A stretch of 61,624 nt of DNA, counting the filler, from Fonticula-like sp. SCN 57-25 (Eukaryota): assembly GCA_001724245.1 (NCBI GenBank). It is 9 parts of 9 records of this genome, joined end to end, with 100 filler letters (N's around TTAATTAATTAA, not from the genome) between each part and the next. Parts side by side here need not be neighbours in the genome. Positions count along the whole stretch, not along the records: positions 54,038 to 61,624 come from MEDX01000747.1; 8 more parts are not named here. One strand, written 5' to 3'. This document shows, piece by piece, positions 5,051-61,624 of this stretch. Under the pieces are notes generated by a model. That model did no database searches, had not been told where the DNA came from, and saw only the letters and a program-made list of their open reading frames with translations. Within the stretch, counting starts at the first letter, position 1. The number at the start of each line of letters is the position of its first letter. The translations under genes and the position numbers were made by a program.

Positions 5051-5150
5051 NNNNNNNNNNNNNNNNNNNNNNNNNNNNNNNNNNNNNNNNNNNNTTAATT
5101 AATTAANNNNNNNNNNNNNNNNNNNNNNNNNNNNNNNNNNNNNNNNNNNN
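5051..5150. other. Artificial contig linker (first of eight)
   Basis: 100-nt N run with central TTAATTAATTAA. Also at 14800-14899, 20130-20229, 25318-25417, 34642-34741, 41798-41897, 47234-47333, 53938-54037. Confidence 0.98.
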
Positions 5151-5352: not shown

Positions 5353-7617
5353 TTATTGCTTTGTAACAGTAGCATTTGAAGTATCTGTAACTGGAAGTGC
5401 TGATCTATTTGCTAGCAGCCCCTGTACCATTACCCTTTGATGGTTATCAATAAATTGCTTGAAGCGTAGTAGCAAGTTATGCTTGTCATCGTTGTCGCTT
5501 CGCAAAATTGCAAACTCGAGTGCAAAAAGATTCGCAAGACGCCTGCTGGGAATACTCACCTTGCGCTCCAACATGGTCTCCAATAATGTCAACGCAAGAT
5601 GGTACTGTTTCTCGTGAATATGTGCGTTAAGCATTGTCAAATAGGAATAGACACTCGGTTGCGATAGTTGCTCAAAAAACTGTTTTGCAGTATCATACTG
5701 TTGTTGCTTCACATAGGCACGAAGTATGTTCTGATTGCTGTACTTTGAGGGTATCACTTGCAGTTGCTGCATCTTGACAAACCAGTCATCCACTTCCTCC
5801 CAACAAGAATTATCCACAAGTTCGTTAATGTAAAAATCAATAGAACTCTGCAACTCTGGAGCACTACTTTTCATGTGGATCAAATGTTCCAGTAGAGCAC
5901 TTGCGATTCCATATTCACGCAACTGGGTGTATACTTGCACCATTTCGCGAACTACAGATTCATCATTCTGTATTCGCTCATCTGTAGCCTCAAACAGTTC
6001 CCTGGCAGTAACATATTCCTTGAGTTCGTTGAGCGCTTTCAAGATTGCACTGTAAAATGATGGATCAACCATGTCCAGTGAGGTAGCCTGAGAAAAGCAT
6101 GCGAGCACACCGTTCCAGTCTTTTTTAGCGATGCAAAGTTGCATTGTAAGAGTGAATGTGGAGAGAGTGTGACCTGTGTGTACTATTAGATCGAGAAGCA
6201 TGGTGCTTGCGCTGGAAATGGCATCAGCTGTAATGCATGCGTGAACAGCTGGAATAATTAGCGTCTCAATGGAAGTTGTGCTATCTTTCTTCTCCAAAAC
6301 CAATTGATGCACAAATTGGCTCAATTCTTGCCATTTATGCTGCTGTATAAAATTCTTCACTCTCAGTTCAACTGATACTTGTTTTCGTTGCTGTTGTTTA
6401 TCCTTGGGGTGTTGCACCAATGCACCTGAAAAGTATTTGGACTCCAATTGCACGATGAAATCTCCAATTGTTGCAGGGTCACTTTGCTCTGATTGAAATA
6501 ATTCTCGCACACAAGCTAACACACGTGGGTCTTCTGAACCCAACTTACATATACGTTCCAGCAGAGCAAGAGTTTTAGTAGTCAATCCAGAACCATCATT
6601 TCTATTACTTATATCTTTTCCATCACTTCTAACAGATTTACCATCACTTTTAACAGATTTACCACTTGAACCAGTGACAGTACCAGTTTCACTACTACCA
6701 GTGGTTTGCAGTAAATATGATCTCACACTCTTTGCAACACTAGGCTTGCGTAACAAGAGTGCACTCACAAAGACAATCAATAATTGCCTCCACGAGAAGG
6801 TTGCCTGAGCAGCAAGTCTTCCCTTTGCATGCATTAGTGCCATTGAGTTCTTCCCCTGAGTTCCAGTGACAGTACCAGCTGCTTTGGTGCCAGTTCTGGT
6901 ACCAGTTACTCTGGTACCAGTAGCATTAGTAAGTGCACCAATACCACCAGTACTCTGCAATTTCCATGCCTGAGCATCCTTGAATAACTTGAGAATAATC
7001 GCAAACTCCATAACCGGCGCGAACGCCTCAATAACCGCACCAAAATCAATTACTGTTAAGAAACTTCGCTTATTTTTGAGTTGCGCAAGGAGAGCCGCGG
7101 ATCGCTCTGGCATGCGCGCCTGGGCGTTCAAATGCAAAAGCGCATGGAGCAGCGTGGCAGTGACGCGACGCGCATCGAGCACCTCGAGACAGGAGAGCAC
7201 CGTGTTCGCCGGTTCGACCATCTTGCGTTCGATTAGCTGCGCGAGGAGATCGCGCACGCGAAGCGCACCGACGCCCTCCCCCTTCAGCAGCTGCGGATGC
7301 ACGGACGCTAGCAGCTCGTACGCTTCGGTGCTCTGGCCAGCGGAGAGCAACTCGGCGAGACGGCGATCCATTTCGCTCTCAGGCAGGGGTTCACTGGTGC
7401 TGTAATGTTGGCGTTGCTGGTGGTGCAGATGGGAATGTTTACCGAAGTGATGGTGGTGCTGACAATGGTAGTTACTGCTGATGTTGGGGAAATGACTGAG
7501 TGTGTTGCATTGGTGCTGGTGCTGATTATTAGCGTGTACTGTGGTTGCTAGTTGTTTGCGTTTGCACCACGGGGAGCAGATTGCGTTCACCCCCCAGCGT
7601 CTGAAAATGGCGCTCAT
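5353..7617 (-). CDS. Pentatricopeptide-repeat-like protein, possibly mitochondrial
   Basis: Long ORF, first ATG 7617. PPR-like helical repeats (PSVYSYLTMLNAHIHEKQYHLALTLLETMLERKV; IDFGAVIEAFA). Basic N-terminus. Confidence 0.65.
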   Translation of the reverse strand: MSAIFRRWGVNAICSPWCKRKQLATTVHANNQHQHQCNTLSHFPNISSNYHCQHHHHFGKHSHLHHQQRQHYSTSEPLPESEMDRRLAELLSAGQSTEAYELLASVHPQLLKGEGVGALRVRDLLAQLIERKMVEPANTVLSCLEVLDARRVTATLLHALLHLNAQARMPERSAALLAQLKNKRSFLTVIDFGAVIEAFAPVMEFAIILKLFKDAQAWKLQSTGGIGALTNATGTRVTGTRTGTKAAGTVTGTQGKNSMALMHAKGRLAAQATFSWRQLLIVFVSALLLRKPSVAKSVRSYLLQTTGSSETGTVTGSSGKSVKSDGKSVRSDGKDISNRNDGSGLTTKTLALLERICKLGSEDPRVLACVRELFQSEQSDPATIGDFIVQLESKYFSGALVQHPKDKQQQRKQVSVELRVKNFIQQHKWQELSQFVHQLVLEKKDSTTSIETLIIPAVHACITADAISSASTMLLDLIVHTGHTLSTFTLTMQLCIAKKDWNGVLACFSQATSLDMVDPSFYSAILKALNELKEYVTARELFEATDERIQNDESVVREMVQVYTQLREYGIASALLEHLIHMKSSAPELQSSIDFYINELVDNSCWEEVDDWFVKMQQLQVIPSKYSNQNILRAYVKQQQYDTAKQFFEQLSQPSVYSYLTMLNAHIHEKQYHLALTLLETMLERKVSIPSRRLANLFALEFAILRSDNDDKHNLLLRFKQFIDNHQRVMVQGLLANRSALPVTDTSNATVTKQ

Positions 7618-7891
7618 TCCTTTTGTCAACCATGGAGTTATGCGTGGTACTTTTTTTTTCACATCCTGCTATCAATTGGTATTCTCAGTGTATGGAACCA
7701 CTACAAATTAACCTTCAAGCACCTTCACTCACAGACCAAAAATGATGTCAACTGTCCACGTAACAAGCGTGATATTTCCATCTCCTCTTGAAGTTGCTAA
7801 TAGGCACTCTGAGATTCTGGTTTCAGTATGATTCTAACATTCCAAGAAACAGGTTCTGAGTCAAAAATATTGACATTTATTTTCGCTCAAT

Positions 7892-12640: not shown

Positions 12641-12908
12641 GATTTTACAGCACTGTCTACACTGTTATATGCCTCTGTTCAATAGTTTATGGATTGTGAT
12701 TTGCACTCGTTGCTGGTAATCTTGCACACCCACTCCTCGTTGCATCAGTTTCATGTTTTGTGTTATGTAATCGATTGCACGTCCTTGTTGTGCAGTATTC
12801 TTATGTCACAATTAACCACCAATGCCTTGTTCCATGCTGCATGGAGCACTTTTGAACTGGAAGCAGCAGCATTCAAGTCAACTCGCTGGTCCAGCTTGAA
12901 GTGCGAGC

Positions 12909-14799
12909 ATGAGTTCAACCACTAGGCCAGCATATCAGCGAAACTATGAGGAAGAGGGAGACGATGTTCAATTTGAGCTTACAGAGTCTGACATCAATGT
13001 GAAACTCATTGGTACACTGGAGGAATTGAGCCACGATATCAGGATCAACAACAACAGTGATGACAATTTTAACATTGAAAATCACAGAATCAACAATTTC
13101 CACAACATTCAAAATCACAGAATTAACAATTCCCACAACATTGAAAATCACGCTAGTAATTCCAATAACAACAGAGGCAATAGAATAGTTGGTAGAGGGG
13201 GAGAGAGTATAGTCTACTACGGAGCTGCCAATGGGGTGGAGCAAGAGAGAGATAAAAATCCGTACTTCAAGATTCCGAAGCGACCGACAAGCGAGCAGCT
13301 GCTCTGGCTCCTCACGTTAGCGCGGAACGAGTGGTGGCTCCTGATTGTCGGTTCCGTCGCCCTCATCGCGTCCAGCGCGGTCACCCTGCTCCTCCCGAAC
13401 TACGTGGGTACGGTCATCGATGGCCTCCTGACCGGTCGGCTCCACTTGCCCTCCCTGCTGCTCAGCTTTCTTGTCCTGGTTGTGCTCATCGCGGTGACCT
13501 CCCTCGTGAAGCAGGTGTGCTACACAGTAGCCGGGGAGCGTGTGGTCGCCAGGTTGCGCAAGACCCTGTTTGCCAGCATGCTTGTGCAGGATATTGCCTT
13601 CTTTGATGTCACAAGCACCGGAGAGCTCATCAACCGTCTCTCCTCCGATACAAAGGCTCTTGAGAGTGCAGTTACCTCCAATCTGGCACAGGCGATTCGT
13701 CAGTTGCTCCAGGCTCTCGGTGGCGTGGCGATTCTCCTCTATCTGAGCTGGAAGTTGAGTCTCTTGATGCTTGCTGTTATCCCCCCGTTGACCGTAGGTG
13801 TGGTGGTCTACGGGATCTACGTAAAGTCTCTGGGACGAAAGGTGCAAGATATGCTTGCGAGGGCATCTGAGGTGGCACAGGAGTCGCTCGGAAACATTCG
13901 CACTGTGAGATCCTTTGCACAGGAGGGGAGACACAAGCGCATGTATGACACTGTTATTGATGAGTCCTACGCATTAGCAAAGAGATTAGCATTCATTGGT
14001 GGAACATTCCACTCAGGGGTCATGTTTATTGGCAACTTATCACTCCTCGGTGTGATAGCCTTTGGTGCATATCTTGTACAGGATAATCAGATGACTGTTG
14101 GGGCATTGACCAGTTTCCTCATTTACACCTTCTTTGTCGCCACGGCAGTGGGCATTCTCTCGATTTTGTATTTTGACATTGTGAAAGCCCTAGGCGCAAC
14201 TGAGCGTGTTCACTCTCTCATCTCTAGAAAACCGAACATTACCTGCGATTCAGGAACAGGTGAAACTTTGGAATCGGTCACTGGTCTCATTGAGTTCAAG
14301 CAACTGTCGTTTGCGTATCCATCACGCCCGAATAATCCGGTGCTCAGCAATTTTGACTTGCATCTTTCACCGGGTGAGGTTGTTGCGCTTGTTGGTCAGT
14401 CAGGTGGTGGTAAATCTACCATTGCAACCCTGTTGCAGCGCTTCTACGATCCAGATCATGGTAACATTCAATTAGATGGTATCGATATCCGAGATTTGGA
14501 CATTATGTGGTATCGTGGGTTGATTGGTTGTGTGTCACAAGAGCGTAAGTCAAATTTTTCTTCATTTGTTAACCATCTCACGGTGATCTCATTACATGTC
14601 CAATCACTTAGCTGCACTATTTGGAACATCTATTCGTGAGAATATTGCATATGCAAATGAAGCTACAGAGGAACAAATAATACAGGCAGCAACAGAGGCC
14701 AATGCCCATCAATTCATCACCCAATTCAATGAAGGTTACGATACACAAGTAGGGGAACGAGGTGTGCGATTGAGCTCTGGTCAGAAACAGAGGATTGCA
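12909..14799 (+). CDS. ABCB-type half transporter (ABCB10/TAP-like), 3' truncated
   Basis: TMD ([18 protein letters not shown]), Walker [13 protein letters not shown] restored by intron 14546-14610, signature variant [10 protein letters not shown]. Confidence 0.9.
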
Positions 14800-14899
14800 N
14801 NNNNNNNNNNNNNNNNNNNNNNNNNNNNNNNNNNNNNNNNNNNTTAATTAATTAANNNNNNNNNNNNNNNNNNNNNNNNNNNNNNNNNNNNNNNNNNNN

Positions 14900-17471: not shown

Positions 17472-20129
17472 TCAAGCATCAAGCGACGAAAGCTTGGCGC
17501 TGATAAGCGAAGCAGTAGGGCGGCTAGTGGGCTCGAAAGCCAAGGCGGCCTGAATCAAGCTCGACAGCGAAAGCGGCAGGTCAATCATGTCATGCGCATC
17601 CAAAACCAGAGACTTGCCGCTCAGTACAGCGTTGCGGACCGACTCGTCCGGCAGCGCGCTCCACGGCGCATTGCCAGATGCAAGCTCGTGCAGCACCACA
17701 CCAAGCGAGTAGACGTCCGAGGCGAGCTCCATAGGAACCGCGCAATCAACCGTGCTGCCGTCCCGTGCTGCCAGCAGCACTTCGGGCGCAGCGTAGCGCA
17801 CGTTAACGATGCGCGGCGGCATGTACGACACACCGTCGTCGGCCGCCGAGCGCGCCTGGCTAAAGCCGCCGAGCACCGCCGTGTACAGGAGCGACTCGCC
17901 GCTCGGCTCCTCGAGGAAAATGTTGGCCGACTGAATGTTGCGGTGCACGATGGACAGCGAGTGCATCGCGCTGATGGCAGAGGCAACATTCGACGCGAGC
18001 TGGTGCAGCTGTTTGGCCGGCATGGGACGCGGCGTCTCCTGGACAAAGCGCCCAAGGGTGTAGTGGAAAGCGCGCGTCATCACAGCCCGCGGCTCGTCCG
18101 TGTAGGCCAGGATGCTCACAATGTTGGGGTGGAACGAGAGCGACCACATGATTGACACTTCGTGGTGGAAACGCTCGTCGTTCTCGGCCGCAGTGAGGAG
18201 CGCAACGTCGTGGTAGTTGCGCATCACGACATGCGTGGAGCCGGCCCGCTTGGCCACGGTCGGGTCAAGGACGGTCGCGTGGTACTCGGAATCGCCCGCG
18301 TCAGAGTCCACAGGCTTGCCAGGCTGCACCGTCGTCGCGTAATCAACAAGCAAAAAGCCCGGCAGCGCAACCTCTAAGGTCGTGTTCACAACCGTCTTGT
18401 CTGCATCCCACAAGTGGATCGTCGAGTTTGCGTGGCTCATGCTGCTCCGTGATTGGGCAATCGAGCTGCGATACTCCTTCAGAGCAACCATCGCATCTGA
18501 TCCGCCAAACTCATCCAGCTGCTTGTTTGTCGCCTTTTGGCGGCGGCGCATGACCACGATAACAATGATGACAACCACGATAAGCACCACAACGGCAGCG
18601 GCGCTCGCGGCCGCAATCACAGTCCCGCTCGTGCCAAGGCCCGGGTCCTCAACGACGTTGTCCGTCGACGACTTGGTCGTCACAACCAGCCGCGCGCCAA
18701 CCTGCTCCGTCTCATTGCCCTTGCCCGCAAGCACAAGCACCTCGTACGAGCCGCCTGCTTCCAGACCCGTCACCTCGACCGACCCCGTAGACGAGTCCAC
18801 CTGCTTGAACAAATCAAAACCATCCGTCACGGCGCGCGCGTCCTTCGTCGACCGCGTGTACACGGCGTAAAACTCGGCGAGCGCCGACGGCGTCCAGCTC
18901 AACTTTAACGATGACGTGGTTGACTCGTCCAGCTTCAGGCCCGTCGCCGGCGAAATATACGTCGTAGTAGAGAAGATTGAGCCCGACGCGTCGTTGTAGC
19001 CCCACTGCACGTCGCCCATCGTGATACGGAAGTAGTAGAATGTGTCCGGCGACAGACCGCGGATCACAATACGCGTCTCCGTAAAACCAACAGCCGCTGA
19101 AAAACACTACAGCGTCAGCACCGCCGCAATAAAGTATCAGGTTGCGCGGCGCACAGTTCGAGTTGGCGATAACGTAGTTGTGGTCGCCCGACGACACCTC
19201 GGCGCGGAACGTCGAGTTTGCCGTCATGTTGACCGCGTTCCAGCTCAGCGTCACATCCGTCGATGTCTTGCTCACGAGCGTCAGGTTGTACACTTGGTCC
19301 TCGCTAGAAATGGGAACTGTAAACGCGCAGGATGAGAACAACACATCATACACAACGCTTTCATACCATAAACGCAGGCATTGCTGTACGACGCTTCCCA
19401 TGTGCCGTTCTCCAGGCACTCGCGCGTCGGCGGACCAGCCGCAGACTCGGTATAGCCGTAGCCGCACGACCCGACGCTGCTCGTTCCGGGCTCCGCCTCG
19501 GGGAAGTACACGCCCTCCAGACCCTCGTTCGGGCAGTTGTCATACTTGATGCGGCACGGGTCCATCACAGTCGCGTTCCATGCACCCGTCATCAGGCAAG
19601 CGCGACGCGGCACGCCCGTCAGACCGCTCAGGCACGTGCCATACCCAACGTCACCGGCGCGCGTCTCGACCCAGTCGGCGTTGTCCGCGAGACCCGCAGG
19701 GCACGTCACCGCTGTGCACGGGGAAAAGATGGGACCCCAGGCGCCCGTCGCAGAACACTCGCGCGTCGGCGACCCAATGTAGCCAGCAATGCACGTGCCA
19801 TGCATAGGGACGCTCGGCGCCGACGACTCGGGCCAGTCAGCGCCCTCCTCTTCCAGCGCCGCGCACTTGATCGCAACACACGGGTTCATCACGTCACCCC
19901 ACTGACCGGTGATCGAGCACTCGCGCGAAGGGCTGCCCGCGAAGCCAGTGTCACATGTGCCCGGGGTCGCGCTGCCGGCAGGCGTCGCGGGCCAGTTCAC
20001 GTTGCCAAATGACTGCGCAGCGCATGTGATCACGGTGCACGAGCCGATAATGTCGGTCCACGATCCGTCCAAATTGCAGTTCCGTAAAGGCGAGCCCGTC
20101 GTGCCCGCCGGGCAAGTTCCAGGAACATT
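17472..20129 (-). CDS. Receptor-type pseudokinase with Cys-rich repeats, FN3 domains and one TM (5' truncated, spliced)
   Basis: Repeats WPxTxAG..GTC..G..G.PxRxC..GxW..C, FN3 motifs (LSW..GL.P.T.Y), TM AAAVVVLIVVVIIVIVVM-RRR, kinase fold with HRN, GFS and YAAPE. Confidence 0.8.
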
Positions 20130-21505: not shown

Positions 21506-23359
21506 CTAAGAAGAGATTTTTAGGCGCACATACAAGGAATTCTGTTTGGGCATTTCAAACTCGAACACCTCGGAGTGCTGTTGCAAGTATTGTTTCAATC
21601 CTTGTGGATTGTAGCCCAGCGATACAAGTTTGCTGGACAATGCTCCGATTTGCATTGGCCCACGATTTGCCCTGAGTGCATCCACAATAACATTTACATC
21701 TACTTCATTGGAGGTGACAATATGTTTGTTTGGCTGATAGGCTGGCCCTTTGTAGCCTTTGATCTTCACGTAGACCTTATTTGTGTAGTTATCATGTTCA
21801 ACGTCAAATACATCAGTATGGAGACTGAGAAATCGCTTTAACCCTTGAGTCTGTTTGCGCAACTTGTTTAGCAGCAAATAATTGCTCAGTGCCCCGATCT
21901 CGATCTGTTTTATCGTCTGCATTACGTGTAAAACGTTACTCAAATCTTCATCCGTCCAATCTGCTGCTGATGTGGCACTCGCTGCAATAGTACCAGTTAT
22001 TTGTGGTGAATTTGCATTGCAATTATTAGCTGGAGAAAATGATGATGATAATGGAGGTGAAACAGTTGGTGGTTGCGGCTGTGAAACAGATACAGTATTC
22101 TTCCATTGTTGTGGAAGCTCATTCATTACACGTTCATTTGGTAAATGCTCGCAATCTCCTGAACAAGATATCTCATTGTCAGCTATTGGCATATTGGCAA
22201 TGGTAGTGGCTGATGATGTTTTTTGATTGAGAGATGATTGTATTGTACTTGTAGAGGAAAGTGGTTCCTGTTCTCCTCCAGTAATACTATTACTACCACT
22301 GCTTATGTGGAGTCCTTGTCCCTCCTCCTCCTCCTCTTCATCATTATTTACTTGTTCTTTTGGTCCCTCCAGTCCTTTATTCCCTCTTACGAGTAAATGC
22401 TGTTGTTGAGCCTCCATGTTCCTCTTCCCCTCGCCCACAACTGTAGATAATGTGAGTGTAGGCTGTTTTTGTTGTTCCAGTGGATCAGGATGTTGTTGAA
22501 TATCCTGCTGATGGTGTATTTGCTCCTGTTGTTGCTGTAGATGCTGTAAATCTCTCTGTTCCTGGTATGCTCCTTTCTGTTGCAGTTGTTGTGTATTTTT
22601 TACCTCCTGTTGCTGTACATTTTTCATCTGTTGCTGATACTGTTGTACATTTTTCATCTCCTGCTGATGCTGCTGTACACTTTTCATCTCCTGTTGATGC
22701 TGTGCATTTTTCTGATACTGCTGATGCTGCTGTATGTCTTTCACCTCCTGGTGTACATTTTTCACTTCTTGCTGCTGTACATTTTTCTGATATTGCTGAA
22801 CATTTTTCACCTCCTGTTGTTGTTGTTGCTGTAGTTGTTGCTGTTGTTGCTGTTGCTGCTGTAGTTCACCAGAGATGATGAGTGGAATCGGCTGTTTCAC
22901 CACATCATCCAAATAGTACATTTTTGCGACCGACGAGTAGCGAAATGCCTCGTGCCACGCATCGCTCGAGGGGACAATCAGGGCACACGGGTATCGTCGT
23001 TGCGTCAGACGGTGCAGAACCATCAGCAGACGCACGTCCGCTGTGACGAAAACGAGCAGCGCGTCGTCGGGGCTGTGGTCCCACGCGAAGCTCATCGCAT
23101 CGACGATGAGCGCATTTTTGCATCCGGCAAATGGCACGTGGCACAGCTCCACCCCGCTGAGGAAGAACGAGTAGCGCATCTCCCCGGGCATCTTCTCCAC
23201 ATTTGCGAATATGCGGAACGAATCAATCGACGTGCTGATGCTGCCGCACGTCTCCCGCGTCAGGATACGGATGTTGTGCACTGCGTTCTCAACGTTTGCG
23301 TTTTCGTATTTTTCAAGGGGGCACGTTTCGTAGTCCCAAAAGATCCCGACTCTCTTCAT
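21506..23359 (-). CDS. NYN-domain protein with Q-rich linker and two LOTUS/OST-HTH-like domains (MARF1/limkain-like)
   Basis: VGIFWDYETCP NYN start. Duplicated C-terminal unit IGALS..L....QGLK.(F/Y)L..H..VF. Confidence 0.7.
   Translation of the reverse strand: MKRVGIFWDYETCPLEKYENANVENAVHNIRILTRETCGSISTSIDSFRIFANVEKMPGEMRYSFFLSGVELCHVPFAGCKNALIVDAMSFAWDHSPDDALLVFVTADVRLLMVLHRLTQRRYPCALIVPSSDAWHEAFRYSSVAKMYYLDDVVKQPIPLIISGELQQQQQQQQQLQQQQQQEVKNVQQYQKNVQQQEVKNVHQEVKDIQQHQQYQKNAQHQQEMKSVQQHQQEMKNVQQYQQQMKNVQQQEVKNTQQLQQKGAYQEQRDLQHLQQQQEQIHHQQDIQQHPDPLEQQKQPTLTLSTVVGEGKRNMEAQQQHLLVRGNKGLEGPKEQVNNDEEEEEEGQGLHISSGSNSITGGEQEPLSSTSTIQSSLNQKTSSATTIANMPIADNEISCSGDCEHLPNERVMNELPQQWKNTVSVSQPQPPTVSPPLSSSFSPANNCNANSPQITGTIAASATSAADWTDEDLSNVLHVMQTIKQIEIGALSNYLLLNKLRKQTQGLKRFLSLHTDVFDVEHDNYTNKVYVKIKGYKGPAYQPNKHIVTSNEVDVNVIVDALRANRGPMQIGALSSKLVSLGYNPQGLKQYLQQHSEVFEFEMPKQNSLYVRLKISS
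22540..22865 (-). repeat. Coding Gln-rich repeat (QQQE[VM]KNVQQ)
   Basis: Repeated TGTACATTTTTCA.CTCCTG units on the + strand. Confidence 0.8.
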
Positions 23360-23628
23360 CACAGAATGCTGAATCCGGCTGTCTCTCGTTGGATCGGTTG
23401 ACCATTGTATTCTGTTGTAGTTGTTGGGTTATGGATGGAGGAAACTGTGATAGTTGCCACAATTCAACTTTACATCTTGTTTCAAGTAGTTTCTCTTCAC
23501 TTTGGTCAGCAAATCCTTGGAGATTTCGCATTTAATGGTAACTTTCAGTTAGTTCACGGAACACGGGCAACGTCGTTTGCCTGTTGTTCGTGGTACTTCG
23601 TGGTTGACTTATTATTTCAATTGCGTCA

Positions 23629-53310: not shown

Positions 53311-54541
53311 AGCTGGCGGGCGAAAGTCAAAAAAATCAAGCGAATCGACGCGAGCCGACGGGAGACCGCACGGCCGCTACTTACCATGTATTTCTGTGCT
53401 CTCTGAAAAGAAATAAAAAAAACAATTTTGAACTCGATGCCGCATGGCATCATGCCTCATGCCTCGCATCGCATCGCATCGCCCGTGAGCGAGGTGGCGG
53501 GAAACTGATGTGTGATGACAGCCTTAGGGTGGGGATGAGCTGCTACCCCGAGCTCACCAATCAAGACTGGTGGGACCAAAGTGGACAGTGTGGCCAGCCA
53601 ATCATATTCTAACGCCGTACGCTGCCGTACGCTGAAGGGGGGGGGGTACAAGGTTGCGCACGACCCAACCCATAAAAGGAAATTTTGCCAGCCGTAGAGC
53701 GCTATCGCCGCAGAACAGGGGGGGGGTTCACCAAGGAACTACCTTATAGGCACAACAGCAAGCCGTCTTTATTGTGAACTGCGTCGTCAGGCATATATGG
53801 CGAACGCGCACTTCCCTCTCGTCAGCGCGGCCTCTTTCCTCGCCGCAGGCATTGCTCGCCACTTTCGAGGCGGCGCTGCTTCAAGATCTTGTCATTGCCA
53901 AGACTTTCGACGTTTCATTCGAGCGCTGGCAAGCTGCNNNNNNNNNNNNNNNNNNNNNNNNNNNNNNNNNNNNNNNNNNNNTTAATTAATTAANNNNNNN
54001 NNNNNNNNNNNNNNNNNNNNNNNNNNNNNNNNNNNNNTCGCGGAGCTGTTTGCAATGAACATCAAGGTGGACTTGCGTGTGTTATAGCGCGGGGCAAGTG
54101 GGGTCGCATTTGGATACTAGTCATTTTCAACATTCTTTCTTTTCTTTTATGGTCTCTTTATGTGCGCGCGCAGACGATGAATGTGTACAAAATTTGACGC
54201 GTGTAATGGACATATTTCACACATGAACAAACTTCTGAACAAACACATTGACAAGCTGAGCTTATATAACTAAAGTGGGCCACAGTAACACTGAAATTTC
54301 GTTAAATTGATTGGCTAGTATTATGGCAACATTATGATGTGAAGAGGGACTCGGCCCTCTGCCCTTTTGTGCAAAACAACCAAGAACGAAATCGAGAGAA
54401 AGAAGATTGAGAAAAAGGATTAGCAAAAGAAAATATGGAAAAAAAGATATTGGAGAACAAAGGCACGGAGCCCAGACGCCGCCGTTGCGCACGATGCGCC
54501 GTGGAAAAGGCGGGCGACGAATAAGTTAATAAGGAGGGACG

Positions 54542-57500
54542 TTAATTCCCGCGCGAGGATGACGCAGCGTGCATCTGCCCGTCGCTGTCTCCGTCCTCCT
54601 CCTCGTACTCGTCGTCGTACTCGTCGTCGTCCGACTCTTCGTCGCCCTCGAGCGCGGCCTCCTCGACGAGGCTGTCGAGCATCGCCGCGCCGCAGACGCG
54701 CACGGCGACCGTGTCTGCCTCGGCGACGGCGTCGGCGCCGAGCATGTGGATGACGTAGTCTGGCGGCAGCGCGTAGGGCGGTGGGCGGACGCGCCTGGCG
54801 TACGACTCCGGAGGGCACACCGGCGGCGGCACCGCAGCGATACCCGCGTGCTCGGCGGCAAACTCGACGTAGTTGAGCGTGGCGAGTGCCGGGGCGGTCG
54901 CCTTGCGGTGGACGAGGAAGAGCGCCATGGCGACCGAGCCGAGCAGCATGACGCCGCCGAGCGCGATGAGGACGATGAGCCACGGCGGGAAGACGAAGGG
55001 CAGCGGCGCGGCGGCGTCGGAGGGAGCGGGCGGCACGGCCACGTTCTGGAGGACCACAAAGTCGGAGAGGTGGGTCGTGAGGCACTGCGCGCTACGGCTG
55101 TCGGCGCGGAGAAGGGAGACGCCTTCCTGTGACCACGTGCCAGAGTCATAGTCGAGGTACGCGCACACGAGGCGCGCGGGGTCGATATTGTCCGCGGCGT
55201 CAAACTCGAAGCGAATCTCGACGGTGTGGCCGCCAAGGTCGGAAATGTAGTCGCGGCCGTTGTCGTCAAGAACGCCGAGGCGAGTGCTGCGAGAGCAGTC
55301 GCGCAGCGCCATCGTGTGGACATTGCCGTCGCTCGGCTGCCAGCGCGTCGCGTTGCCGGCGCCAGAGGTGTCGTACAGCGGGTCGTCGGTGCGCGAAAGG
55401 ATGCGCGCAAAGAGGGCGCGCGCGGCGTTGCCGACAGTGCTAGCGACGTTCGTCTGATTGCCGCCCTCGAGCTTGATCTCGGACGGCGGAGGAACATTCG
55501 CGTACACGGTCGTGTCAATGTCGAGCGAGCTCGCGCAGAGGCACGTGGCGGCGGAGCCGTCGGGGCGCGCGACGCCAAAGGTATCGGGGAAGGTGAAGCT
55601 GCTCACGGCGTGGCCGCCGTCGAGGCGATCGCGGCTGGCCGTGAACGAGATGATGGCGCCGCGCACCGTCGAGGGGCTCTGACGGCACGCCTGGCCGGTC
55701 TGGTACAGCTGCGCGCCAACATCGAGCGCCTGCCAGAACAGCTTGAGGTCGTCCACGGTCGTCTCGGGGCGCGCGAGCAGCACATTCTCTTCAGCGCGAA
55801 GAAGGCAGCCCATAAAGTCATCGGGCATCACCATGCCGTACGTCATCGAGCTGTTGAATGCAACGACTTCGCCGAGAAGGCGCACGAGAAGGGCGGCCGA
55901 CTTTTCAGCGGGGAGGCTCGCCGACGCCTCGGAGAGGGTGCTGAGGACGCACACCTTGCGCATGACGTCGTTGGCGGTCGGCGGGATGCGGTTGCCGGCG
56001 CTGTCGACGGCAGAGTCGAGCGACTGCAAAAAGTCAGACACTTGCGAGGCAATCGCAGAGCGCGGCGACACGGCGGTGTTGACAGTGGTATCAGCGGGGG
56101 CGACGACACTGCGCGCGTAGAGGTCCGAGGACGAAGTGCCGTTGAGGCGGTCGTTGGAGACGGCGAGGCACCCGACAAAGTTGGCCGCGAGGATCTGGAG
56201 GTCGCGCCAGCGGCCGAGCAGGTAGAGCTCTGACGAGCGCCTTCCAAACTCGTTCTCGAGCACGTTGAGGCTGGCCGTATCGGTGACAGTGCACGGCTCG
56301 ACGATGATGACCTGCTCGACAAAGCTCATAGCGCCGTTCTTTTGAATGATGCGGGCAATGACGCGGATGACGTTACCGTGAGTCGGGTTGGGCATGGTCG
56401 TGTTGAGGAGACCGGGGCGCTGCGAAGTAGCCTCGACAAAGCCGTCCTCGCTGTAGTACATGCGGATCGAGTACGTGAGCGGCAGCTGGCTCTCCTGGGC
56501 GGACCAGCCGGGCAGCGAGATGATAAAGTCGTCAAAGACGGCGCGGCCGGACGCCGGCGCAATAACAAGAGAGCCGCCGAGCGGGATGCTCGAGGTGACC
56601 ACCTGCAGCGTGCAGTACGCGACCTGCTCGCCGCGCGTGCCGTTCACGACCGCAAAGATCTCGAGGCGGAACTGGTACACGGAGTTGGGCAGCAGCACCT
56701 CGGGGCGCAGCAGAAGGCCGTCCTCCGAGTTGGGCGGGCCGTTCAGCAAGTTCGGGTTGCTCAGGTCGACCGTCGACAGCGAAATGTTGTTGAAGCCGAG
56801 CGCGCGCGTCGTGCCCTCGAGCGACGTCCACAGGAACTCGTACGTCGCGTTCGGGAGCAGCGAGAGGAGCGCAGAGATGGCCAGCGGGCGCGTCACGACA
56901 AAGTCGGTCGGGTCGGTGCTGCCCGTGTCGAGCAGCGCGTACGGCAGCGGCCCCTGGCGCACCTCGATGACGACAAAGTCGGTCAGGTGCACGAGGCCGG
57001 CGTCCTGCTCGGTCGCGCGGACCTCAAAGTGGTACAGCATGCGCTCGGGGTCGGCGATCAGCTGGAAGGCCTCAAAGTTGGCAAACTCAAAGAGCTGCGG
57101 GACGGGCGACGCGTCCGTCGTGACGTTGCGGATGAACTGAGGCTCAAAGGCAATGATCCTGAGCGGGTCGTTCGGGTCGAGGACGAGGCACGAGTTGGTC
57201 GACGCGAGCGGCGCAACGTTGGTGCAGCTCAGGCGGAGGTCGACGACGCGGCCGCCGAGGCCCGACGGGTCAAGGAGGCTCACATCAATGGTCAGAGCGG
57301 ACGCCTCGCCGATCGAGCGCCATCCACCACCGAGCACGCGAAGGCGGAGCGGCGGCGGCAGCACGTCAATCACAATCGTGTACTGGCCGCTGAGCGACGG
57401 CGTGTCGATAGAGTGCACCGTCACGGTGACGTTGTACTGCGTGCGCGGCGTGAGCGAGTTGCGCGGGAACAGCACCGACGCGGCGTGCTCCTGGCCGGCA

Positions 57501-59856
57501 AGCGCAGGGATCTCGGGCGTCGCCGTCCAGGTAAAGTTGAACGTGGCGTTGGACGGCGCGCACGGCGCCAGCGTCACGAGCGGCGTCAGCTCCGTCTCCT
57601 CGGACGAGACGACACGCAGCGGCGACGGCGCAAAGATGACCACCGTCGGGATGCCCGCGGGCACAACCTCCACCGTAACTGAAGCAGGCTCGGAGGAAAC
57701 ACCAAGGTAGTTTGTCACGACGAGCGTGATGGTGTACGTCGTGATCTCGAGCGAGTCGGCCGGGAACGTGAACGACGACACGTTGCCCGCCTTGAGCGAC
57801 TCGAGCACCGCGAGCGCCGCGGCCGACGTCGGCTCGGGCGTGATCGTCCAGTTGTAGACAAGGTCGTGGCCACCGCCGCCAGTCGAAAAGGCGGCAGACA
57901 CCTCAAGCTCGGCGCACTGCGAGATCGCCTGCGGCGCCGTGATGACGGCCACCGGAAGCGGCGGGTTCAGCGGCGGGTCCACAAGCACCGGCGTGATCAG
58001 CGGGTCGCAGAACTCGCGGCCAAACTCGCGCAGCGTGTCATTCAAAAAGTAGAGATAGTCGCCGGGGCGCAGCGTCGAGTCGTGGCCCTAGCGGGTGAAC
58101 AGTCAGTCATGAACATCGCAACGATCAAGTGCGTACCAGAGAGATGGTGAGGAGGTCGCCGGCGGTAAAGACGCACGACGGGTTGGTGCCGAGCGTGTCG
58201 ATGGTCGCGGCCGTGAGTACCGCCTGGCACGTGGCGAGGCTGTCGGGGAGCGTGGTGACCGAGACTTGGTCGATGGCGAGCGACGCGTTAAAGGTGGCGC
58301 GGACGCCGTTGCCCTCGTCGAGGAAGCGCGCCGAGAGTGCGATGGGCGCATACTGGTAGTAGTGGACCTCGAGGAAGTTGGTGAAGGGCCCGCTGGTGCC
58401 GCTAAAGGAGAGCGACAGGTGCGCCTTTTGCGACACGGCGGTCTCGGGTACCGGGCAGACGACGGTCGTGTCGTTGTAGATGACGCCGGTCTCATAGCGC
58501 GTGACGTTCTCGCGCTGCATCTCGTAGCGACAGGTGACGCTCGTCTCGTTGCTGCCGTTGCTGATGGCCTCGAGCGTGGCGGTGCCGACAAAGTGCGTGC
58601 CGGGGACGATGATCTCCTGGCCAGCCGTGTCAATGTACACCTTGATGGTGTCGTTGCCGACGCCCGCGGTGCCGTTGTCGTAGACGAGGTAGTCGAGCGG
58701 GCCGAGGATCGTCCCGTCGATGCTCAGGAAAAAGTCCTTGATGCCGAGCGAGCTAAAGGCGTTCAGGTCGCACGACGCCTCACCGGGGTCGATGACGGAC
58801 GCGGGGACGGACGTGTTGAACATGTCCTCGACAATGCACTCGAGCGTGCGCGGCGTGCCGTCGGGGTGCTGGAAGCCCGCGCCAATAACGTGCACGTTAT
58901 AGTCGGTGACGTTGGGGCCAGAGTCCGGCACGATGCGGATAAAGGCAAAGCACGTCGTCTGGTTGCCGTCGCACACGCCGCACAGGTCGTACACCTTGCC
59001 AGAGTTGGGCACGCCGTCGCAGCCCTCGCAGGTCGAATTGTCGCCAAAGCAGATGCCGCACAGGTCGCGACCGGCGTTGGTCGGAAGGCCGGTCTCGCCG
59101 CCGACGCAAAGGCCGCACGAGTTGTTGCGCGCATTGCCAAAGCAGGTTCCGTGACAGTCAGCAGAGGGCGAGGGGCCGTCGGAGGGCGGGCCGCAAACGT
59201 CGCACTCGTCGCGCACGTAGGGGCGCTCGCGGCAAACGTCGTCGCAGCCGACCGTGCAGGCGGGGGTCGTCGTCTCGGGGCGCGTCGTCGTCGTCGCGGT
59301 GGCAGTGGCCGTCGCGCTTGACGTCAGAGTAGGGAGGACAATAGAGGCGCGCTGGAAGAGGCGAAGGTAGGGTGCCTCGGCGGACGCGTCGTCCGCACTA
59401 GCACCGCCGGCAACGTCGCCCTCCTCATCGTCGAGGATGCGCAGCAGAGCGGAGCTCGTGAAGCCCTTGGCGTGCAGATGGAGCAGCACGGTGCGCGAGC
59501 CATCGTTCCAAAAGTTATCAAAGAGACTCACCGGGACGGAGATGGCATCTTGGCCGGCTTCAAAGTGAAGCTCCGACTTTACGCCGCGATAGTCAAAACC
59601 GTCGACGGCGGTGCCCTCGGCCGTCGAAAAGACTACCGAGAGGCGATCGGAGAGCGCGCCACTGCGCCGCACCTCCACCAAGGCAGAGCCCGCATTCTCA
59701 TAAACTTCGTACGTTCGTTGCGAAAAGGAAACACCTAATCGATGAAAAAGGGTTAACATTTCGCAGGTAAGCACGACGCAAGCACGCACCATCCAAGGCG
59801 TGGGCCGTGAGCGCCAGCCATACTAGGCAGGCGATCGCCGCCGCCGTCCACCTCAT
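54542..59856 (-). CDS. Single-pass adhesion receptor: signal peptide, Calx-beta, Cys-rich repeats, IPT-like, REJ, GAIN/GPS, TM, PPxY tail
   Basis: Exons 59856-59790, 59734-58137 and 58087-54542 splice in frame. MRWTAAAIACLVWLALTAHA signal, GTAVDGFDY Calx-beta, DxCGxCxG repeats, GPS CAYLD..WSQEG..CLTTHLSDF, one TM. Confidence 0.85.
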
Positions 59857-60231
59857 GGCTAGCCGGTGGGTTCTGGGACAGTTTCACGATGAAGCAAACG
59901 ATCTCCTTTTCGACAATACCGCACACCAGCCGTGCGAAATTAGTCAACAGGGTGAGCATCGCGAAAGGACGGCGCCACGCATCGCCGCCCCTTGCCCGAA
60001 AGGGACGCACGCGTCATTGCCAGGGAGCGATGACAGAAACAGACAGTCAGCAAACAGTCAGCAATCAACTCTTTAACTCGCATGCGATTTTGGCACGTTT
60101 TTGACATGTCTTGACAGATGAGACCAGCCAATCAGCATCCAAGTCAACCCGTCAAAGTCTCCTTTTTTGCTTTCGTACTGAAACCTCCCCGGCACAAGTC
60201 GCTTTTCGTGTTGCACGCTCAAAGCCCTAAG

Positions 60232-61624
60232 ATGCCTGCTGCCGACACTACGGTCACCCACAAGGGTGCGTATTGCTCCATTTTATCTTTATCTAACGGC
60301 ATCCGCAGCGCTTCCCGCCGGCTGGTCGGTGCACGAGGATGAATCCGGCCGCATCTACTTTTCCCAGTACGCGCGCGTGGCGGTTGCGAAGTGTGCTATG
60401 ATTCTGACGATTAATCGCGCGCCTTAGGTCGTCCAGCCAGTCCACTGCGTGGCAGGACCCGCGCATCCCGCGCGCGCAGCTGACCGAGTTTGGTGCGCAA
60501 ATCCGCATGCGATTTTTCAGTGATGATCTTACCGCCCGCCAGACAATGTCAACGCGCCCGCCTACGTGAAGGCGGCTCTCTACCTTGTGCGCGATGGGGA
60601 CAACCACAGCTGTGCGTCAAGTTCATATTTATTTCCTCCTTTCTGCTTTTCTGACCTGATTACCTCTAGTCCGCTACCTTGATGCCACGCGCGTCAGCCT
60701 GCAGGTGCAGAAGCACCGCTCGCTCGAGGAGGGCGCCTTTATCTCCAAGGGCGACTTTTCGCGCCTTGTTGAGCAGATGGTCATTGACGCTGTCTCGCCC
60801 GGCGAGCGCTCTGCGATCGTCTTCCGCATCGTCGATCGCGTCTTTTCGCTGCTCGATCTGCCCTTCAAGGGCGAGGCCGAGTTCCGCGCGTCCCTGCTTG
60901 CGCTTGTTCTCCTGAGCGAGATCCCGCTCAAGGAGAAGGTCTCGCATGCTTTCAACATTGTCGACTCGCAGAACCGCGGCGAGCTCACCAGCAACCAGAT
61001 GCTCGTGCTGCTGATGCTCATCTCGCGCCTCGTTGAGAACCCGCTGTACCGCTACAAGATCGTGCCCGACAGCGCGACCGCGCAGGCGTACGTCCAGGAT
61101 ATGTACCACGTCACCCGCGCCGGCACGTTCAAGCTCGTTGACTTTATCCGCTTCGTCAACACGAACCCTCTGCCCCTTCGCCACCTGATCATGGCCGAGA
61201 AGATCCGCCTGTCGCGCGACGTGACGCACACTGACAAGGAGTGCAATGTCTGCCGCGCGCTCCCCATCAAGGGCATCCGCTACCGCGTCAAGGACGCCAA
61301 GGTCAAGCACTGCAACATCTGCCAGACGTGCTTCTGGGCCGGCCGCGAGTCCGCCGACTACAAGAAGGGCATGACCGTCATCGAGTACACCACCGCCAAC
61401 ACGTTCGGTAAGCGCGTCGCCAACAACGGCCTCCTCCTCGACGCCCCGCGCGTCCCGCGCTCTGGCAGCGCCGCCGTCGCCAACATTGGCAACTCGCTCA
61501 ACCTCTTCAAGTCGAACCAGGACTACCGCAAGACGGGCACGCTCCAGAAGCAGACTGGCACCCTCCAGAAGCAGACCGGCACGCCGTCCGGCACGCTCCA
61601 GAAGCAGCCCGTCGCGTCGGCGTC
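60232..61624 (+). CDS. Short dystrophin-family protein (WW, EF-hand region, ZZ), 3' truncated, 5 exons
   Basis: Spliced WW LPAGWSVHEDESGRIYF..TAWQDPR, then DNVNAPAY, LKEKVSHAF and ZZ CNVCRALPIKGIRYR..NICQTCFWAGR..IEY. Missed by the ORF track because of introns. Confidence 0.8.

Follow-up and report, generated by a model that had tools for sequence, protein, structure and literature searches.

A predicted stand-alone WW-EF-EF-ZZ gene of the dystrophin superfamily beside a PY-tailed REJ/GPS receptor gene in a Fonticula-like eukaryote

Described systems and the divergent gene pair

Dystrophin and utrophin carry a cysteine-rich region in which a WW domain, two EF-hand regions and a ZZ finger follow each other (WW-EF1-EF2-ZZ; 9c3c_D, 8yt8_E, 1eg3), and the accessible part of one report identifies the PPPY motif in the dystroglycan tail as the site of the dystrophin WW domain (PMC2834674). 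The literature consulted places the dystroglycan-dystrophin axis at the base of animals. In the accessible text of Adams and Brancaccio (2015; PMC4582122), unicellular relatives are described as having neither dystrophin nor dystroglycan, the cysteine-rich domain is reported from otherwise unrelated choanoflagellate and Capsaspora proteins, and the idea is advanced that the interaction of this domain with a dystroglycan-like site predates both proteins, with no such tail found. Several components of the complex are given for Capsaspora in the accessible sections of Suga et al. (2013; PMC3753549), and a 2023 review, in the passage that is accessible, describes unicellular organisms as lacking both dystrophin and dystroglycan (PMC10293626). 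The locus presented here comes from Fonticula-like sp. SCN 57-25 (assembly GCA_001724245.1) and lies in a stretch of 61,624 nucleotides, which was analysed as a whole and is called the window below. It consists of two intron-bearing genes arranged head-to-head, a receptor gene at 54542-59856 on the minus strand and a partner gene at 60232-61624 on the plus strand, diverging from a 375-bp spacer (59857-60231) between their start codons on the last contig. With a probability of roughly 0.6, we consider them to be two real, divergently transcribed genes, encoding a surface receptor and a stand-alone WW-EF-EF-ZZ scaffold of a unicellular eukaryote. The solid result is that a deep-branching form of the dystrophin docking module, existing as a stand-alone protein, is encoded next to a REJ/GPS receptor with PPxY (PY) motifs in its tail.

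The window is not one molecule. Several contigs are chained in it by N44-TTAATTAATTAA-N44 spacers, with N runs at 5051-5150, 14800-14899, 53938-54037 and other positions, and distances or neighbourhoods across these runs are meaningless. Both genes lie wholly on the last contig (54038-61624). An earlier, sequence-only reading of the window had placed the two ATGs (59856 on the minus and 60232 on the plus strand) about 375 bp apart on one contig and had attributed the DNA to a microbial eukaryote, and both statements hold. The source is an uncultured unicellular eukaryote, with GT-AG introns of 43-61 nt. Its DNA occurs in metagenomes from bioreactors, wastewater and aquatic habitats, and its nearest named relative is Fonticula alba. 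In a metagenome assembly with short contigs such as this one, a chimeric contig or a pair of dead genes has to be considered, but we regard that explanation as very improbable. Both long frames are open and their GT-AG introns are consistent. Logan contigs of two other studies reach across the start of the receptor gene and the greater part of the spacer (X2 at 59751-60159 and X4 at 59760-60185, together covering 59751-60185), both genes are covered in all four sequencing runs that were compared, mostly at 95-99% identity, and near-identical proteins (99-100%; P0001, P0151 and P0152) were called on other, separate contigs. A chimera is unlikely on these grounds. X2 and X4 each carry an 11-12-nt deletion at 60043, within the intergenic spacer, which fits a strain difference in non-coding DNA. 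Between 60186 and 60350 no listed piece crosses, and the bin depth is above zero in three of the four runs.

A stand-alone relative of the dystrophin docking module

The partner gene begins with the ATG at 60232 and its frame stays open to the contig end, where its 3' end is cut off. Its five exons (60232-60265, 60309-60366, 60428-60492, 60543-60611 and 60670-61624) are separated by four GT-AG introns of 43, 61, 50 and 58 nt. The spliced N-terminus aligns with the Fonticula alba protein H696_01926 (XP_009494102.1; P0009) without a gap over all four exon junctions (43% identity over 109 aa, E-value = 1e-29), and the splice model is independently supported because this alignment runs gap-free across every junction. 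An alternative in-frame ATG is located at 60118, 114 nt upstream and behind a stop codon at 60112-60114; a start there would lengthen the protein by 38 residues ahead of the WW domain and cut the spacer to 261 bp. The ATG at 60232 is preferred because the relatives begin about seven residues ahead of the WW domain. The missing C-terminus is supplied by P0001 and P0151, which come from the same species (99% identical, 416 aa). After the ZZ finger, P0001 becomes Ala/Pro-rich and then runs into a long poly-acidic tail, and Pfam finds a weak ZZ only in it. Judged by composition and Pfam, without a coiled-coil predictor, no coiled coil was read in the P0001/P0151 C-terminus. Past the ZZ finger of the partner, at 61530-61610 on the plus strand, a short Thr-Gly-Thr-Leu-Gln-Lys-Gln unit also occurs three times, nearly in tandem.

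Concerning its domains, the partner opens with a WW domain (60311-60461, plus strand), which begins at residue 13, lies directly ahead of the EF region, retains its two Trp and the terminal Pro, and is interrupted by the second intron (60367-60427). The WW domain of the window protein was identified by its motif and by the alignment with P0009, while Pfam recognizes the domain in the complete relatives P0003 (E-value = 3.5e-9) and P0007 (E-value = 1.5e-9). It is followed by two degenerate EF-hand pairs corresponding to the dystrophin EF1/EF2 region (60729-61214, plus strand), which are helical in the AlphaFold2 (AF2) model (helices H26-181; predicted local distance difference test, pLDDT, of 81) and were also recovered by the fold search and hhalign. 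Finally, a ZZ-type zinc finger with one four-Cys site kept is located at 61227-61364 (Pfam ZZ 18.2 bits against a cut-off of 21.4; phmmer match to dystrophin). The four cysteines C191, C194, C217 and C220 are invariant or almost so among 57 aligned sequences. A ZZ finger has two zinc sites with eight ligands. The EF and ZZ regions were identified through phmmer against the PDB, hhalign and the fold search. The predicted product, about 490 aa long, consists of a WW-EF-EF-ZZ module on its own. This agrees with the earlier description of a protein that starts directly at a WW domain with both Trp and continues with EF and ZZ regions, free of an actin-binding domain or spectrin rod: the WW domain is at the N-terminus, and the C-terminus known from P0001 is of low complexity and acidic. 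A long conventional dystrophin was considered and rejected, with the WW domain at residue 13 and, on the opposite strand, the ATG of the neighbouring gene 375 bp further upstream; the relatives P0003 (368 aa) and P0007 (373 aa) likewise begin at the WW domain.

HMMER, hhalign, fold comparison and phylogeny all place the predicted protein in the dystrophin/dystrobrevin/dystrotelin superfamily. Dystrophin is both its best fold match and its best sequence match in the PDB. Specifically, phmmer ranks dystrophin 8yt8_E first (E-value = 2.3e-9, over the ZZ finger and its flanks) and matches neurocalcin over the EF part (E-value = 6.5e-6). The HMMER search gave 157 matches at E-value ≤ 0.001, C. elegans Dys-1 being matched over query residues 57-244 (E-value = 3.7e-9). 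Among the matches that were looked up are utrophin, lamprey dystrophin-like proteins, dystrotelins, dystrophin-like proteins of cnidarians, annelids and brachiopods, proteins of the choanoflagellates Monosiga and Hartaetosiga, and the Fonticula alba hypothetical protein. When the clade of the window protein was compared with the choanoflagellate-plus-animal set by hhalign, the two aligned with a probability of 99.8% (E-value = 1.7e-30) over 310 collinear columns extending from the WW domain to the ZZ finger. With the AF2 model, which was built on the 57 aligned sequences, Foldseek returned dystrophin 9c3c_D (E-value = 4.8e-10, template modelling score 0.63), then 8yt8_E and dystrobrevin 9c3c_V, and neuronal calcium sensor (NCS) proteins after them. 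NCS as the primary family, suggested by the match at E-value = 6.5e-6, ranks behind dystrophin and dystrobrevin in this fold search and was rejected because the dystrophin-type match is collinear from the WW domain through the ZZ finger. Seven long proteins (P0006, P0008 and P0010-P0014; 1466-3072 aa) match the partner EF region in 6-9 separate stretches each and look like arrays of NCS-like EF modules; one of them, a protein of the dinoflagellate Durusdinium trenchii, bears the name 'Recoverin family protein'.

A maximum-likelihood tree was built from 28 rows, namely a chosen subset of the 150 listed matches together with the window protein; it is unrooted, leaves out the long multi-repeat EF proteins, and carries a long-branch warning for Fonticula and P0046. 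In it the window protein falls into a clade of seven with 100/100 support, consisting of Fonticula alba and six rows including the window protein itself, while 20 choanoflagellate and animal sequences form a separate clade (97/98). Within the former, the window protein and Fonticula alba share one subclade (94/94). The dystrophin likeness proposed in the sequence-only reading is upheld, and the tree places the predicted partner in a distinct clade with Fonticula alba, outside the choanoflagellate-plus-animal one. Four metagenome proteins (P0020, P0063, P0046 and P0051) also have a WW-EF-ZZ arrangement. P0020 and P0063 group with choanoflagellates, and P0046 has a canonical Ile-Asn-His WW domain and a long branch adjoining the clade of the window protein.

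Compared with dystrophin, the partner has the same domain order but lacks the CH actin-binding domain, the spectrin rod and the coiled coil. Its ZZ finger keeps one zinc site, its WW domain is without the Ile-Asn-His signature, Pfam calls neither EF-hand_2 nor EF-hand_3 in it, and it belongs to a separate clade. Its closest named relative, Fonticula alba H696_01926, shares a Ser pair in the WW domain and is longer (738 aa), long stretches of low complexity being inserted into its EF2 and ZZ regions; no Pfam family was found in it at E-value ≤ 0.01. The proteins of Monosiga brevicollis (XP_001742662.1; P0017) and Hartaetosiga balthica (P0021) resemble the partner in being unicellular WW-EF-ZZ proteins with no spectrin rod. 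Unlike the partner, they have WW, EF-hand_2, EF-hand_3 and ZZ all called by Pfam, carry an Ile-Asn-His WW domain, reach about 1000 aa and group with animals.

A REJ/GPS receptor with tandem PY motifs in its tail

The receptor gene extends from the ATG at 59856 to the stop codon at 54542-54544 (minus strand) and encodes 1736 aa with no internal stop. Its three exons (exon 1 at 59790-59856, exon 2 at 58137-59734 and exon 3 at 54545-58087), with splice sites read from the sequence, are separated by two GT-AG introns of 55 and 49 nt, and the exon 3 product is 100% identical to the database protein P0152. Exon 1 (59790-59856) encodes the putative signal peptide, a hydrophobic N-terminal window with a Kyte-Doolittle (KD) value of 1.72. 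A Calx-beta domain follows at 59463-59732 (PF03160, E-value = 2.9e-15, 56.7 bits against a cut-off of 27), and after it come Cys-rich repeats, a REJ domain at 56276-57466 (PF02010, E-value = 2e-25, 89.8 bits against a cut-off of 25, aligned to positions 46-420 of a 452-position profile), a GPS motif at 55049-55168 (PF01825, E-value = 0.001, 20.0 bits, under the cut-off of 22.5), one transmembrane helix at 54914-54982, which is the sole strong internal hydrophobic segment (KD 2.52), and a cytosolic tail of 116 aa, all on the minus strand. There are 27 N-glycosylation sequons in the ectodomain. The GPS motif contains a candidate autoproteolysis site, H-L-S (55064-55072, minus strand, by translation), and aligns with adhesion G-protein-coupled receptor (GPCR) D1 (8x9s_R; phmmer E-value = 0.002) across the C..THL(S/T).F..L motif. 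Two of the usual cysteines are present, as read off this ADGRD1 alignment; GPS motifs usually carry four.

The receptor is thereby predicted to be a type I, single-pass REJ/GPS protein and not a protein of the polycystin-1 type. It shares with polycystin-1, PKDREJ and sea-urchin REJ the succession of REJ and a GPS motif with H-L-(S/T), the latter sub-threshold in the receptor, whereas it differs from polycystin-1 in having one helix, no PLAT domain, no 11-transmembrane channel-associated part and a different N-terminus, made of Calx-beta and Cys-rich repeats. Sea-urchin REJ1 is single-pass. In adhesion GPCRs a seven-transmembrane domain comes after the GPS motif, whereas in this receptor one helix is followed by the tail and the stop codon. 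What had been proposed from the sequence, a PPxY-tailed GAIN/REJ receptor with a polycystin-like ectodomain, survives in part. The REJ domain (E-value = 2e-25) and the two PPxY motifs of the tail stand; the GPS match is sub-threshold, and the AF2 single-sequence model of the GAIN region (426 aa; pLDDT 40, predicted template modelling score 0.28) is too poor to read a fold. Likewise, the likeness to polycystin covers REJ and GPS and ends at the single membrane helix and the lack of PLAT. The best look-alikes in the atlas scored 0.88 and 0.86, under the 0.9 line, and the REJ and GPS clusters among them serve as leads only. A homologue search with exon 3 returned only the same protein, P0152, a search with residues 800-1181 returned nothing, and when metagenome contigs were scanned with exon 3, not one of the 590 pattern stretches that matched was confirmed. 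In the proposed mechanism the product would be a heavily glycosylated type I surface receptor displaying Calx-beta, Cys-rich repeats, REJ and GPS. As in other REJ/GPS proteins, it would probably be cleaved at H-L|S, with the two resulting fragments staying attached.

The tail contains the tandem R-PPPY-AL-PPDY (54755-54787, minus strand), in which PPPY (54773-54784) and PPDY (54755-54766) are six residues apart; translation confirmed this detail of the sequence-only reading exactly. These are the only PPxY motifs in the entire 1736-aa receptor, and they stand about 70 residues from its C-terminus. Among 200,000 shuffles of the tail, at least one PPxY arose in 4.8% and at least two in 0.09%, so that two such motifs are unlikely by composition. 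The tail also holds a membrane-proximal Y-V-E-F and, near its C-terminus, an acidic cluster rich in Asp, Glu and Tyr (54578-54649, minus strand, by translation), both of which we take to be sorting-type signals. Beta-dystroglycan offers an analogy only. It is a single-pass protein with a self-cleaved ectodomain and a PPPY in its tail, features that the receptor shares, its own cleavage being a candidate one, but the receptor has no sequence similarity to it, has a different type of cleavage module and carries its PY pair away from the C-terminus. In dystroglycan the PPPY is at the very C-terminal end. The Pfam scan of the receptor found no dystroglycan family, and the tail gave no dystroglycan match at E-value ≤ 10 against the PDB, in which the dystroglycan chains of 8yt8 and 9c3c are included.

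Relation between the receptor and the partner

Several observations weigh against reading the two products as a REJ/GPS receptor and a dystrophin-type scaffold. In the Pfam scan of partner exon 5 (317 aa), a weak ZZ below the cut-off was the only match, and neither EF-hand_2 nor EF-hand_3 appeared at E-value ≤ 0.1. The second zinc site of the ZZ finger is gone, a Val and non-His residues occupying its positions. Because dystrophins were included in the AF2 alignment, the fold match does not count as evidence separate from the sequence match. In the receptor, the score of the GPS motif falls short of its Pfam cut-off, and the putative cleavage is read from the H-L-S motif. Pfam, from which confirmation of the domains had been expected, bears out Calx-beta and REJ above cut-off, leaves GPS and ZZ below it and calls none of the dystrophin EF-hand families. 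There is no RNA run among the 20 listed runs, and the splice sites are those predicted from the DNA. Finally, the partner WW domain has Ser and Ser after its second strand (motif Y-F-S-Q-S), and its ligand may not be a PPxY motif.

The last point can be judged against WW2 of AIP4, for which the accessible part of a structural report describes Val24 and His26 as contacting the PY motif, with the ligand Tyr held between His26 and Arg29 (PMC8190631). Relative to the AIP4 residues of that report, the partner keeps those of the proline groove, namely Tyr, Thr and the second Trp. At the two positions of Val24 and His26, Fonticula alba has Ser/Ser like the partner, P0003, P0007 and P0020 have Leu/Glu, and dystrophin-type WW domains have Ile or Val together with His.

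For the partner, the mechanism envisages a cytosolic scaffold of about 490 aa, a stand-alone dystrophin receptor-docking module from a deep sister clade with Fonticula alba, which by homology to the dystrophin module would most likely read proline motifs on membrane-protein tails through WW and EF1. For the receptor, the PY pair and the acidic cluster would, judging by the motif, recruit cytosolic WW-domain proteins. Whether the two meet is a separate matter. The WW-EF part of the partner might bind the PPPY/PPDY tail, with the shared 375-bp spacer co-regulating both genes, giving a dystroglycan-dystrophin-like pair built on a REJ/GPS ectodomain; we hold this to be doubtful, though worth serious attention. 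The genes are head-to-head and 375 bp apart, the tandem PY is confined to the cytosolic tail and improbable by composition, the partner is homologous across WW-EF-ZZ to a group of proteins that in animals bind the PPPY of dystroglycan, its proline groove is intact, and both the receptor, through its H-L-S motif, and dystroglycan are candidate self-cleaving single-pass proteins. According to the accessible part of a yeast survey, about 4% of yeast proteins have a PY motif (PMC1557994), which makes a PY neighbour uncommon, not rare; as a rough estimate, chance alone would supply a PY-tailed neighbour a few times in a hundred.

Other facts speak against such binding. The pair is a single instance, as the receptor searches and the partner-based contig scans yielded no orthologous locus: a metagenome-contig scan with the partner alignment matched 53 stretches and a genome-contig scan with the single partner protein matched 55, and none was confirmed in either. 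The WW domain has Ser/Ser in place of Val24/His26, the tail is without similarity to dystroglycan, and the partner is without a cytoskeleton-binding part. By our own reasoning, orientation alone would make about one quarter of adjacent gene pairs divergent, and this pair was singled out for its coincidence. Direct binding of the partner to the receptor tail is given unfavourable odds, set by a low prior for neighbour-encoded ligands against the few-percent chance expectation and then discounted for the odd WW domain. As for the 'adhesion complex' of the sequence-only reading, understood as a link to the cytoskeleton, it goes beyond the evidence, with no actin-binding, spectrin or coiled-coil part in the partner.

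The main rival to a binding pair is that the adjacency is coincidental, that the PY motifs dock Nedd4/Rsp5-type HECT ligases, or other WW proteins, for endocytosis and turnover, and that the WW-EF-ZZ protein has other ligands. We see this as a realistic possibility, falling somewhat short of even odds. In the accessible part of the yeast survey, most PY interactions go through Rsp5 and its group I WW domains; 27 of 124 Rsp5 interactors have PY motifs, and only nine PY proteins in the network did not bind Rsp5 (PMC1557994). The partner WW domain differs from group I at two positions that touch the ligand, which suits a use of the tail by other proteins. The tail Y-V-E-F and the acidic cluster, in the sorting role that we presume for them, point the same way. 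On the other hand, this explanation leaves unexplained why the neighbour is a dystrophin-type WW-EF-ZZ gene. Ligase docking and binding by the partner are compatible with each other. A receptor-adaptor complex is a plausible and good hypothesis, cheaply testable, and not a finding.

The evolutionary value of the locus lies first in the partner. The locus defines a distinct stand-alone WW-EF-ZZ clade outside the choanoflagellate-animal group, of which just one member, an unstudied protein of Fonticula alba, is named, and it offers a cloneable candidate ligand next door for a domain whose pre-animal ligand Adams and Brancaccio (2015) left open. Relatives of this clade may already be listed among the unicellular proteins resembling components of the dystrophin-glycoprotein complex in the supplements of PMC4582122 and PMC3753549. 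In the literature searched, as far as its accessible text extends, dystrophin and Fonticula occurred together in a single paper, which deals with features of introns. Should the pair bind, the ancestral role of the dystrophin docking module could be tested in vitro; otherwise, an ordinary REJ/GPS receptor adjoins an interesting, unexplained mini-dystrophin relative. A bolder proposal would be that an axis of receptor and adaptor like that of dystroglycan and dystrophin is older than animals, and possibly older than the Holozoa/Holomycota split, that in the Fonticula-type lineage a stand-alone WW-EF-ZZ adaptor docks on the tandem PY tail of a self-cleaving REJ/GPS adhesion receptor, both being expressed from one 375-bp promoter region, and that dystroglycan later replaced the receptor half and did not found the axis. 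We regard this scenario as a long shot.

Apart from the gene pair, other contigs of the window carry further recognizable genes. An open frame at 17472-19106 on the minus strand contains a fibronectin type III domain (E-value = 1.3e-9) followed by a Tyr/Ser-Thr kinase domain (E-value = 1.6e-23), and its product may be a receptor kinase. A PPR-repeat protein (5353-7668, minus strand), an ABC transporter half (12900-14639, plus strand) and an NYN-domain protein (21506-23428, minus strand) are also encoded, and these three genes fit a eukaryotic assembly.

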